From the IMG/VR virus record IMGVR_UViG_2563366903_000001: a stretch of DNA of 7,412 nt; one strand, written 5' to 3'. Below the pieces are notes generated by a model, which ran no database searches, was not told the DNA's origin, and saw only the letters and a program-made list of their open reading frames with translations. Shown piece by piece: positions 6,943 through 7,412 of the stretch (positions are counted from its first letter, which is position 1; every line of letters begins with the position of its first letter). This DNA comes from a virus. Taxonomy: Duplodnaviria > Heunggongvirae > Uroviricota > Caudoviricetes. A program made the position numbers and the translations under genes.

Positions 6943-6971
6943 CTTTTTCTTTTTTTCTACAAAACCCATAC

Positions 6972-6992
6972 CCCGCCGCGTGCGGGTTTTTT
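6972..6992 (+). terminator. Putative intrinsic terminator / RNA hairpin: 5-bp GC stem CCCGC(6972-6976)/GCGGG(6982-6986), loop CGCGT, then T6 (6987-6992)
   Basis: Read directly from the sequence. A CT-rich tract (6943-6960) precedes it and an AGGAGG plus ATG follow it. The stem is short, so strength is uncertain. Confidence 0.4.
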
Positions 6993-6998
6993 ATTATC

Positions 6999-7004
6999 AG
7001 GAGG
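6999..7004 (+). promoter_or_regulatory. Shine-Dalgarno AGGAGG, 4 nt upstream of the ATG at 7009
   Basis: Perfect AGGAGG preceded by a U-rich tract (6987-6997). Confidence 0.65.
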
Positions 7005-7008
7005 CAGA

Positions 7009-7412
7009 ATGTCTGCTTTGTATGAACGCTCACAGCTGACGCAGGTGATGATTTCATCTGCCCCGGCGACTGCTGAAACTATGGATAAGGCGGAATATCT
7101 GCGCCTGGACTGCACCATCAAGGAAGTCCAGTTCACCGCCGGTCAGAAACAGGATATTGATGTGACCACGCTCTGCTCCACAGAGCAGGAGAACATCAAC
7201 GGTCTGGGGGCGTCGTCCGAGATTTCCATGTCGGGTAATTTTTATCTGAATCAGGCCCAGAACGCCCTGCGTGATGCCTATGACAATGACACGGTGTATG
7301 CGTTTAAGGTGCAGTTTCCGTCCGGTAAGGGCTTTAAGTTCCTGGCGGAAGTGCGTCAGCACACCTGGTCATCCGGTACCAACGGCGTGGTGGCTGCAAC
7401 GTTTTCACTGCG
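7009..7412 (+). CDS. Major tail tube protein, lambda gpV-like (3' partial, runs off the window end)
   Basis: Frame is open from the ATG at 7009 to the window end; it is absent from the ORF track because no stop lies in the window. DNDTVYAFKVQFPSGKGFKFLAEVRQHTWSSG parallels the gpV N-domain motif ([24 protein letters not shown]). Strong SD. Canonical position after the tail terminator. Confidence 0.75.
   Translation, partial: MSALYERSQLTQVMISSAPATAETMDKAEYLRLDCTIKEVQFTAGQKQDIDVTTLCSTEQENINGLGASSEISMSGNFYLNQAQNALRDAYDNDTVYAFKVQFPSGKGFKFLAEVRQHTWSSGTNGVVAATFSL

Follow-up and report, generated by a model that had tools for sequence, protein, structure and literature searches.

Putative terminators inside lambdoid late operons

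Intra-operon terminators have been annotated in the late operons of lambdoid phages for 25 years, yet in genome papers their role is still given as unknown. The HK97 genome was reportedly published by Juhala et al. in 2000 with annotations of this kind. Among the features of its record (NC_002167) are putative terminators ahead of the major tail gene (6692..6719) and of the protease gene (3309..3335). The former comes after the tail terminator gene; there, the sequence ACCCGCC-AGAT-GGCGGGT is followed by TTTCTTTTTCCAGGAG and then by ATGTCTGC. In phage L, a P22-like phage, predicted Rho-independent terminators likewise occur in an operon with a single Q-type antiterminated promoter. According to the authors of the phage L study, the late operons of lambdoid phages do contain internal terminators; they call the roles of these “not known” and offer two proposals, namely stopping transcription in the absence of antitermination and partial termination within the late operon (PMC8022706). 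An intrinsic terminator controlled by Q is described at tR' of Stx phages and lambda, where its product is StxS, in a paper that also reports Term-seq of EHEC Sakai (PMC7547250).

The window considered here is the whole stretch of 7,412 nt that was analysed (IMG/VR record IMGVR_UViG_2563366903_000001). It covers the head-tail module of a group of E. coli lambdoid prophages that are HK97-like and Stx-converting. About one in four complete E. coli genomes, that of EHEC O157:H7 among them, carries such prophages. The late genes form a single-strand array, and Q is encoded in the close relative phage 2851 (57 kb). Two spacers in this array each contain a hairpin, a T-run and a Shine-Dalgarno (SD) sequence before a start codon (Table 1). 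Site 1 follows terL, whose stop codon lies 25 nt ahead of the hairpin, and precedes the capsid gene, whereas site 2 precedes the tail tube gene, in the position of the HK97-type pre-major-tail spacer. The late operon has three sizeable non-coding spacers, of which these are two.

Table 1. Positions of genes and spacer elements in the window
Feature	Position	Strand	Basis or remark
terL (terminase large subunit), 3' part	64..678	+	Pfam TerL_nuclease; terL annotation in phage 2851
Site 1 hairpin, GAACCGC-UGCG-GCGGUUU, 7 pairs, UNCG-type tetraloop	703..720	+	Terminator scan, fold
Site 1 U-tract, T7 A T4, initial three T pairable into stem	718..729	+	Sequence
Site 1 SD, perfect AGGAGG	731..736	+	5 nt ahead of GTG 742
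Prohead protease-major capsid fusion, 645 aa, GTG start	742..2679	+	Pfam Peptidase_S78 and Phage_capsid; phage 2851 RefSeq CDS
Strong 9-bp hairpin without U-tract, just 3' of capsid gene	2694..2715	+	Centroid fold of 2670-2760
Tail completion/tail terminator gene, 5' of site 2	6598..6942	+	Pfam Tail_completion_gp17; 48% identity to HK97 counterpart
Site 2a, weak hairpin AGGUCAC-GGU-GUGACUU, overlapping TGA stop (6940-6942) of tail completion gene	6929..6945	+	Terminator scan
CT-rich tract, C T5 C T7 C T A C, T-tail of hairpin 2a	6943..6960	+	Sequence
Site 2b hairpin, CCCGC-CGCGU-GCGGG	6972..6986	+	Terminator scan, fold, HK97 annotation, conservation and covariation
Site 2 U-tract, TTTTTTATTAT (T6ATTAT)	6987..6997	+	Sequence
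Site 2 SD, perfect AGGAGG	6999..7004	+	4 nt ahead of ATG 7009
Tail tube (major tail subunit) gene, 5' part, ATG 7009	7009..7412	+	Weak Pfam tail tube hits

The proteins on either side of site 2 can be matched with those of HK97: the gp10-like, tail completion and tail tube proteins of the window share 73%, 48% and 80% identity with their counterparts, the last value applying to the first 134 amino acids of the tail tube gene. Site 2 and the HK97 element at 6692..6719 occupy orthologous positions and have in common a CCGC...GCGG stem, a T-run, the motif CAGGAG and the coding start ATGTCTGC. Position and sequence together make site 2 orthologous to this putative terminator of HK97, although in the window an additional weak hairpin and CT tract precede it. 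The HK97 hairpin at 3309..3335, directly before the protease gene, is a positional analogue of site 1, but the two show no sequence homology (27/46 identical positions, which is background level). In the window, unlike in HK97, protease and capsid are fused and directly follow terL. The tail tube copy already bears the label of a putative terminator in HK97, whose spacer the capsid copy of the window repeats a second time.

Compared with the other described systems, the two sites resemble tR' in that they lie in the same transcription unit, in which Q-modified polymerase passes a terminator that unmodified polymerase obeys. They differ in that tR' lies immediately 3' of PR', has been located experimentally by Term-seq and gives rise to an abundant sRNA that binds Hfq, whereas sites 1 and 2 lie 10-17 kb downstream, with no sRNA signal among the EPEC table rows listed. 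The phage L terminator lies at the end of the procapsid module and differs from the window sites in phage group, position and sequence.

Kinship and conservation of the two spacers

The earlier note had pointed to near-identical modules of hairpin, U-tract and AGGAGG before the capsid and tube genes, and an independent repeat finder confirmed this, with 24 of 27 core positions identical between 714-740 and 6982-7008. The second of its two strings, at 6985-7011, was placed exactly; the first, GGTTTTTTTATTTTCAGGAGGCTGATGTG, has the right letters but spans 716-744 rather than 717-744. A degenerate 27-mer matched the window twice, compared with no matches in 200 dinucleotide shuffles, and the 19-nt core TTTTTTATTWTCAGGAGGC occurred exactly twice in the whole 57-kb phage 2851 genome when up to three mismatches were allowed. 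The number of terminator-like hits in the window was not raised (five, compared with 6.1 ± 2.3 in shuffles), and the evidence therefore lies in their position, strand and conservation. All three plus-strand terminator-like hits of the window fall within the two spacers.

At site 1, the stem is formed by AACCGC and GCGGTT at 704-709 and 714-719 around a UGCG tetraloop (-10.7 kcal/mol; z = -3.05 in the fold). The commonest variant among relatives has a UCCG loop, also of the UNCG type, and the AGGAGG is unchanged in all 12 variants from 45 loci. At site 2b, CCCGC and GCGGG at 6972-6976 and 6982-6986 form five G-C pairs around a 5-nt loop (-8.5 kcal/mol).

We found the hairpin, T-run and SD before the tail tube gene at 244 of 245 loci from phages of E. 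coli, Klebsiella, Cronobacter-type and Phytobacter hosts, the sole exception being a locus whose upstream region has been replaced. Across these 245 loci, the 60-nt region takes 69 distinct forms, which fall into five stem families; a scan of genome contigs yielded only three loci. In tail tube spacers, the T-run begins 19-26 nt and the SD lies 4-6 nt ahead of the start codon, and the loops are mostly UNCG. Stem cells in the alignment of these spacers were paired in 92.8% of cases, compared with at most 64% when the partner was slid. Covariation was seen in the two outer pairs of six (A-U to C-G, 27:8), and none of 500 shuffles attained the covariation score. Because the four inner pairs are nearly invariant across tail tube spacers, the covariation rests on the outer two, and the structural evidence is moderate; shared ancestry could be behind part of the stem conservation.

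To place site 1, we used a covariance model built from 29 tail tube spacers of other phages, with site 1 left out. Under this model, site 2 reached 56.7 bits and site 1 reached 44.3 bits (E about 1e-11), compared with 48-61 bits for true family members and at most 29 bits for other terminator-SD spacers (next non-family hit 28.6 bits or less). The identity of site 1 to the tube modules (0.72) is similar to that within the family (0.70), compared with 0.56 to other terminator-SD spacers. The stem ACCGC-UGCG-GCGGU is identical in site 1 and ENT39118, and T7ATTTTCAGGAG is identical in site 1 and phi467. Since site 1 was found by a model built without it, this comparison identifies it as a paralogous copy of the tail tube spacer and argues against convergence; in the Stx-type lineage of E. 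coli, this copy separates terL from the protease-capsid fusion. The idea of a reused cassette was thus borne out by the tail-tube-only model. In Burkholderia vB_FUB47a, the sole distant relative of the head module (intermediates being almost absent from the phage collection), the terL and protease genes overlap, leaving no spacer and no site 1; the site is therefore dispensable for the head module.

A CT-rich tract had also been listed in front of the second module. The CT-rich tract at 6943-6960 does exist, but it does not stand as a conserved part of the module, as it is polymorphic in length among relatives and is not kept outside the Stx-type clade. Hairpin 2a (-6.3 kcal/mol) shows a compensatory change in one variant, is broken in others and is missing outside that clade. 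We therefore rejected the idea that hairpin 2a and the CT tract form a conserved terminator in tandem with 2b. As a whole, 6920-7011 does not exceed shuffles in the stability of its fold (z = +0.29). Internal AGGAGG motifs within the capsid gene were likewise rejected as signals, as they are Glu-Glu codons.

Proposed termination and the competing roles

Intrinsic terminators typically consist of a GC-rich stem of about 5-10 bp with a short loop, directly followed by a U-run with at least 5-6 U within 8-9 nt. Both sites have this anatomy, with a GC stem-loop, an abutting U-run and pairing kept through sequence change. T-scores and classical d-scores, used for ranking only, were 4.3 and 16 at site 1 and 4.9 and 20 at site 2; these d-scores are positive yet lie below those of the phage's other sense terminators (31-37), and hairpin 2a scored 8. 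The stems at the modules are also short, with 5-7 bp and -7.5 to -10.7 kcal/mol. With such short, lower-scoring stems, termination efficiency may be modest.

We consider it probable that both sites are sense-strand intrinsic terminators joined to a strong SD, with read-through gated by Q in lytic growth. Three roles had been suggested from the sequence, and terminators read through under antitermination fit best among them; we infer termination, and its suppression by Q, from the anatomy, the conservation, the HK97 annotation and the Q gene. During lytic growth, the operon would be transcribed from PR' by a Q-modified, terminator-resistant RNA polymerase, which would pass both sites and leave capsid and tube mRNA unlimited. 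In the lysogen, polymerase without Q, arising from leaky, spurious or read-in transcription, would stop at both sites, and the two bulk virion genes would be kept silent. Because the upstream gene ends 25-65 nt earlier, no translational coupling is expected; instead, the AU/U-rich leader and AGGAGG of the read-through mRNA may direct strong independent initiation, the U-run possibly taking part. According to RNA-seq tables, the structural operon is near-silent in an EPEC lysogen. Phage 2851 has several further sense-strand terminators in its late operon besides sites 1 and 2, which must likewise be read through.

Further considerations stand against this reading. It is not obvious why insulation should lie exactly here, particularly as we found no plus-strand promoter-like site in the window that could be the source of such transcripts. 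It is also counterintuitive to find a terminator right before the genes of the most abundant proteins, unless read-through is near complete.

The same elements could act mainly in translation, with the U/AU tract serving as an S1-binding enhancer beside a perfect SD and the hairpin being incidental or merely delimiting the leader. Studies by Boni in 1991, Zhang and Deutscher in 1992 and Komarova in 2005 are reported to show that U-rich or AU-rich leaders raise translation. S1-dependent enhancers of this type place a U-rich single-stranded tract directly 5' of a strong SD in highly expressed genes, a layout that sites 1 and 2 share. Of the nine gene starts in the window, theirs have the leaders richest in AU (0.68 and 0.60, compared with 0.32-0.56). 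In addition, AGGAGG is perfect at 4-5 nt spacing in both, the spacing of T-run and start codon is closely conserved, and the spacer family precedes tube genes and here the capsid gene also. However, the U-run of sites 1 and 2 is the tail of a conserved hairpin, with the anatomy of a terminator. The most conserved part is this hairpin abutting the T-run, in which pairing is kept through changes, whereas an enhancer alone would need none. Predicted accessibility of the ribosome binding site (RBS) is not raised (0.54 and 0.39, against a range of 0.41-0.69 for other genes) and is unchanged by deletion of the stem in silico. For the same reasons, ordinary predicted accessibility and no effect of stem removal, we rejected the hairpin as an RBS insulator. 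Lower-scoring spacers of the same design also stand before the low-copy tape measure, I and K genes in related phages, so that the specificity for the two most abundant virion proteins implied in the earlier note was overstated. We regard a primarily translational role as rather unlikely. A role in mRNA processing or stability, in which hairpins cap the capsid and tube segments after cleavage and give them a longer half-life than their neighbours, also seems improbable to us, to a slightly greater degree. It draws on the bracketing of the capsid gene by hairpins in three head-module types: 703-720 and 2694-2715 (-17.8 kcal/mol alone) in the window, 3309-3335 and 5192-5213 in HK97, and, in lambda, about 6100-6121 on the 5' side of E and 7163-7180 on its 3' side, the second hairpin of each pair being the equivalent one 3' of the capsid gene. 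The HK97 tail gene is bracketed as well (6692-6719 and 7443-7462), but the tube gene of phage 2851 has no hairpin 3' of it, only a 14-nt gap. Moreover, the U-run is conserved yet superfluous for a stabiliser, there is no long duplex of the RNase III type, and the downstream bracketing hairpins lack U-runs, which makes them a different kind of element.

The remaining explanations account for less of what was observed. Partial terminators that also act on late transcription, tuning gene dosage along the operon, would correspond to one of the two roles proposed for the phage L terminators (PMC8022706), and moderate predicted strength suits this role. Attenuation at these positions would, however, cut capsid and tube mRNA relative to that of the low-copy terminase and connector, the opposite of the needed stoichiometry. 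In addition, Q-modified polymerase of lambda and Stx phages is known to ignore intrinsic terminators across the whole late operon, which also counts against partial termination, and we judge it very unlikely. We hold it to be still more improbable that the shared sequence is a recombination linker, a mosaic boundary promoting module exchange, or the product of chance or convergence. The origin of site 1 does require a copying or recombination event, and protein identities do shift across site 2, from 48% to 80% against HK97 and from 61% to 46% against ENT39118. Yet identity break-points (a jump of at least 7%) fell at site 1 in 0 of 43 loci of close relatives and at site 2 in 2-5 of 77, with no clustering, and concentrate instead in the portal-repeat region (up to 44 of 52). 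Chance is excluded by the shuffles and the covariance-model E-value, and convergence would leave the identical sequence stretches shared by site 1 with ENT39118 and phi467 unexplained. Least probable of all, in our estimation, is an sRNA made in the lysogen, either StxS-like or derived from a 3'UTR, to which site 2, with its U-rich tract, hairpin and poly-U, would contribute the Hfq-binding module at the 3' end. The layout resembles such a module, a weak Rfam isrK match covers 6889-6992, and Stx-type prophages are rich in Hfq-bound sRNAs. Nonetheless, the window offers no plus-strand promoter-like site for an sRNA, the U-rich tract before site 2 is not kept outside the Stx-type clade, and the structural genes of EPEC prophage PP6 have base means of 0.6-27, with no RIL-seq chimeras among the table rows listed, an absence that carries little weight.

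Several described RNAs were compared with the sites and rejected. At permissive Rfam thresholds, matches to the Hfq-binding sRNA IsrK (RF01394; 18.2 bits at site 2 and 11.1 at site 1, compared with a gathering threshold of 50) aligned only the terminator stem and U-run, and a match to the Trp operon leader (RF00513; 17.6 bits, compared with 41) involved only the terminator of the attenuator. AgvB and AsxR (Tree 2014) lie at the moron site 3' of PR'. PasB is antisense in the I-J spacer of prophage PP6, and its probe has no match in the window or in nt 27000-57248, the searched part of phage 2851, while PasA, PasC and PasD are located close to the genes for Q, RusA and lysis (2021 paper, 2026 preprint). 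Candidates in the sRNA table of Tree 2014 had to be antisense to coding regions or over 100 bp away from them, and the table is therefore uninformative for sites 1 and 2.

Implications of the proposed Q-gating and a resemblance in lambda

Finding the same 45-nt spacer at two places in one operon amounts to a natural experiment. If capsid and tail expression were gated by Q as outlined above, the spacers would help to silence many cryptic and active Stx-type prophages, and would offer compact, reusable parts for antiterminator-controlled expression; if the elements have no measurable effect, a long-standing annotation habit would be settled. Either way, we expect the gain to be incremental, without a new principle. 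Bulk virion proteins are common triggers of abortive-infection defences. As a broader and tentative idea, which we think rather improbable, the spacer may be a portable dual cassette for Q-gated expression that stops Q-less polymerase and, when read through, provides a strong S1/SD start, selected to keep bulk virion proteins off in lysogens and on in lytic growth. It would have been copied at least once, to give site 1, and possibly also to the lambda D-E spacer.

We do not claim the D-E spacer as a member of the family, as it scores 15.4 bits (E about 0.06), the level of generic terminator-SD spacers. Unlike the window sites, it combines a second T-run with an SD (GGGA) that is weak, and lambda has no such spacer before V. 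Its overall identity to ENT39118-type tail tube spacers is 47/68, compared with a background of 35-40 out of 68-72. It does, however, have a CCGC...GCGG hairpin abutting T7 just before a capsid gene, E, and its 5' end shows a suggestive identity, with 14 nt, GTTTAACTTTACCC, that match these ENT39118-type spacers exactly.

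Anatomy of the two modules

The window comes from a long-tailed lambdoid prophage of E. coli and covers the head-tail section of its late operon. It is 97% identical to the Stx-converting phages 2851 and YYZ-2008 and ~96% identical to phage 1717, and among 5,426 complete E. coli genomes it has matches in 1,253, the median number of matching places being 6 per genome. Every gene lies on the + strand, and just three of the spacers are sizeable (679-741, 2680-2723, and 6943-7008); all remaining gene junctions overlap or leave a gap of <=9 nt.

An earlier note had described near-identical hairpin/U-tract/AGGAGG modules in front of the protease-capsid fusion gene (site 1) and the tail tube gene (site 2). 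Both strings it quoted are present on the + strand, the first beginning at 716, not 717. The site 1 hairpin is followed by T7AT4, AGGAGG, and GTG, and the site 2 hairpin (2b) by T6ATTAT, AGGAGG, and ATG. The CT-rich tract noticed before site 2 is indeed there, as the tail of a weak third hairpin (2a) overlapping the tail completion gene's stop codon. A repeat finder independently picked up the site pair (24/27 identity), a degenerate 27-mer common to both sites occurred 0 times in 200 shuffles, and a 19-nt core with <=3 mismatches matched the 57-kb phage 2851 genome exactly twice, at equivalent places. The note's observation is thus correct, the similarity is non-random, and the cassette is real. 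Terminator-like matches show no excess in the window (5 versus 6.1 in shuffles), and all three on the + strand fall inside the site 1 and site 2 spacers. Judged from sequence, the anatomy of both sites is that of an intrinsic terminator; weak Rfam matches (isrK, trp leader) align solely via those families' own terminators.

At site 1, a minimal start-stop overlaps the GTG of the protease-capsid gene and shares its Shine-Dalgarno sequence (SD). It is invariant in every variant seen.

Features of the window and of related loci
Feature	Sequence	Position	Strand	Remarks
terL, 3' end	window	to 678	+	
Site 1 hairpin, GAACCGC-UGCG-GCGGUUU	window	703-720	+	-10.7 kcal/mol, z = -3.05
Minimal start-stop	window	740-745		ATG 740, TGA 743
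Prohead protease-major capsid fusion gene	window	742-2679	+	GTG start (742)
AGGAGG and in-frame ATG (Met217)	window	1382-1392		2 nt apart
AGGAGG	window	2688-2693		30 nt upstream of small ORF's ATG
9-bp hairpin	window	2694-2715		-17.8 kcal/mol, no U-run
Small ORF	window	2724-2945	+	73 aa
Portal gene	window	2891-4255	+	
Homopolymer and ATGA	window	4231-4255		ATGA at 4252-4255
407-aa repeat protein gene	window	4252-5475	+	
Tandem repeats	window	4417-5021		162 nt (54 aa) each
Head-tail connector, head closure, HK97 gp10-like, and tail completion genes	window	to 6942	+	
Weak hairpin 2a	window	6929-6945	+	-6.3 kcal/mol
Site 2 hairpin 2b, CCCGC-CGCGU-GCGGG	window	6972-6986	+	-8.5 kcal/mol
Tail tube (major tail subunit) gene	window	from 7009	+	
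Putative terminator	HK97	3309..3335		directly 5' of protease gene
Putative terminator	HK97	6692..6719		between tail terminator and major tail subunit genes; orthologous to site 2 position
Putative terminators	HK97			3' of capsid gene; 3' of major tail gene; 5' of tape measure gene; 5' of gene I
D-E spacer	lambda (locus L252)	6074-6137		directly 5' of capsid gene E
UUCG hairpin	lambda	7163-7180		immediately 3' of capsid gene E
Strong hairpin, I-J spacer	phage 2851 (locus L002)	21377-21400	sense	
PasB, Hfq-dependent EPEC sRNA	E. coli E2348/69 (locus L089)	10262-10344 (NC_011601 1466261-1466343)	minus	I-J spacer of same prophage type, antisense to late operon

Conservation at the tail tube gene and a copy at the capsid gene

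We gathered the loci of tail tube protein relatives from IMG/VR, GTDB genomes, and GenBank phages, and found 69 distinct 60-nt upstream variants in 245 loci. A GC hairpin directly abutting a T-run, followed by an SD, is kept in all loci but one, in which the region upstream is replaced. The predicted hairpins mostly have free energies of -8 to -16 kcal/mol, and in most variants 7-9 of the 9 nt immediately 3' of the stem are T; 19-26 nt separate the start of the T-run from the start codon, and the SD lies 4-6 nt upstream of it. The stems fall into five families: CCCGC...GCGGG (Stx-type phages), CCCGCC-GCU-GGCGGG (phi467), ACCGCC-RCU-GGCGGU (Klebsiella P7641-like phages), GACCGC-UNCG-GCGGUC (Cronobacter ENT39118-like phages), and CCCGGC...GCCGGG (a Phytobacter prophage). 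When 37 sequences are aligned, 92.8% of the cells in the stem are paired, versus <=64% with partners slid; two outer pairs show double-sided changes (A-U to C-G, 27:8), and the inner four (CCGC/GCGG) hardly vary. The hairpins are therefore homologous in sequence and conserved in structure, with covariation support that is real but moderate. This comparison shows a candidate regulatory element conserved across divergent enterobacterial phages.

In Klebsiella P7641-like loci (L152, L119, L161, and others), the stretch about 20-45 nt before the tail tube start includes a C/A-rich linker that directly precedes the terminator hairpin. The linker's CCAAT units vary from 2 to 4 copies among otherwise near-identical phages.

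Site 1 shares an identical stem-loop, ACCGC-UGCG-GCGGU, with the ENT39118 tail tube spacer and an identical T7ATTTTCAGGAG with that of phi467. Its mean global identity to tail tube modules is 0.72, compared with 0.70 among those modules themselves, 0.56 to other terminator-SD spacers of the same phages, and 27/46 to the HK97 pre-protease terminator. A covariance model trained on 29 tail tube spacers, with site 1 left out, gave site 1 a score of 44.3 bits (E about 1e-11), compared with 48-61 bits for true members and <=28.6 bits for other spacers. The "reused cassette" of the earlier note therefore holds, and the comparison shows site 1 and the tail tube spacer to be paralogues by sequence relationship, site 1 being the copy. 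The 3' half of site 1 is invariant (12 variants, 45 loci). In Burkholderia phage vB_FUB47a, the one phage in the collection with a distantly related head module, the gene order terL-protease-capsid-small ORF-portal is the same as in the window, and the terL and protease genes overlap, with no spacer at the site 1 position. The simplest history would be that, in the E. coli lineage, the fused capsid gene acquired a copy of a tail-tube-type spacer directly before it.

Putative intra-operon terminators and possible roles

We chose HK97 for comparison because ENT39118 belongs to Hendrixvirinae; identity to the HK97 counterparts is 73% for the window's gp10-like protein, 48% for its tail completion protein, and 80% for its tube protein. 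In the HK97 GenBank record, several positions of the late operon bear "putative terminator" features. The HK97 pre-tail sequence reads ACCCGCC-AGAT-GGCGGGT, then TTTCTTTTTCCAGGAGACAGCT, ATGTCTGC, and its coding start agrees with that of the window's tube gene. Given this sequence and the orthologous position, site 2 belongs to a class recognised when HK97 was sequenced, and the cassette is a member of the long-annotated class of putative intra-operon intrinsic terminators in HK97-like and lambdoid late operons. In SPP1, intergenic stem-loop terminators likewise delimit late gene clusters.

Spacers that match the covariance model in a second tier (15-29 bits) likewise have a sense-strand hairpin/T-run/SD/start layout. 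They precede the tape measure gene in HK97, phi467, and phage 2851, gene I in HK97, and K, the side tail fibre gene, and stx2A in phage 2851; another lies between I and J of lambda. Such a design is thus general to compact late operons and extends beyond the genes of the two most abundant virion proteins. Before V, lambda lacks a spacer. The lambda D-E spacer carries a CCGC...GCGG terminator-type hairpin with T7, and ENT39118-type tail tube spacers share its first 14 nt exactly; it matches the tail tube model weakly (15.4 bits), so that a relationship is suggestive only.

The phage bearing this operon encodes the late antiterminator Q, and Q-modified polymerase is known to ignore terminators throughout the late operon. 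From this and the terminator anatomy we infer that both sites would be read through in lytic growth, and that unmodified polymerase would otherwise stop at them. The near-silent structural operon of the EPEC lysogen is consistent with this model without proving it. The phage 2851 late operon contains several stronger predicted sense-strand terminators (d-score 31-37, versus 16 for site 1 and 20 for 2b), all downstream of Q and the late promoter PR'.

The phage L genome paper names partial termination, or stopping transcription without antitermination, as possible roles of such elements (PMC8022706); we rejected the former, which would oppose the required stoichiometry. The hairpins that bracket the capsid gene in the window phage, HK97, and lambda suggest a stability role, but the phage 2851 tube gene has no hairpin downstream. 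As for translation, the upstream genes end 25-65 nt earlier, so the downstream genes would need independent initiation, a need that the perfect SD and AU-rich leaders (the highest AU content in the operon) fit. Computed ribosome-binding-site accessibility of the leaders is nothing special compared with other genes, and in silico stem removal leaves it unchanged; a translational role for the hairpin itself is therefore unsupported. We also rejected a known prophage sRNA, since these lie elsewhere, and a recombination linker, since recombination break-points do not cluster at the spacers. The read-through/stop model is the reading we retain.

Capsid, portal, and repeat genes

The small ORF in the capsid-portal gap lacks annotation in RefSeq phage 2851, and is annotated as E2348C_1423 in E2348/69; in vB_FUB47a a small ORF occupies the same place. 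The hairpin between its perfect AGGAGG and its ATG could bring SD and start together. Another perfect AGGAGG, before Met217 directly 3' of the protease domain of the fusion gene, is reminiscent of lambda's nested C/Nu3 starts; it is probably merely Glu-Glu codons.

About 25 nt upstream of the ATGA that joins portal stop and next ORF start, a homopolymer is polymorphic. G6 (21 loci, including phage 2851) yields a single fused 859-aa portal plus Ig-repeat CDS, and G5 (30 loci, including the window) a 454-aa portal and the separate 407-aa ORF; the difference may reflect pseudogenisation, an artefact of sequencing the homopolymer, or a fusion controlled by slippage. Among close relatives, variation is greatest in the three to four tandem repeats within the 407-aa ORF, where most identity break-points fall.
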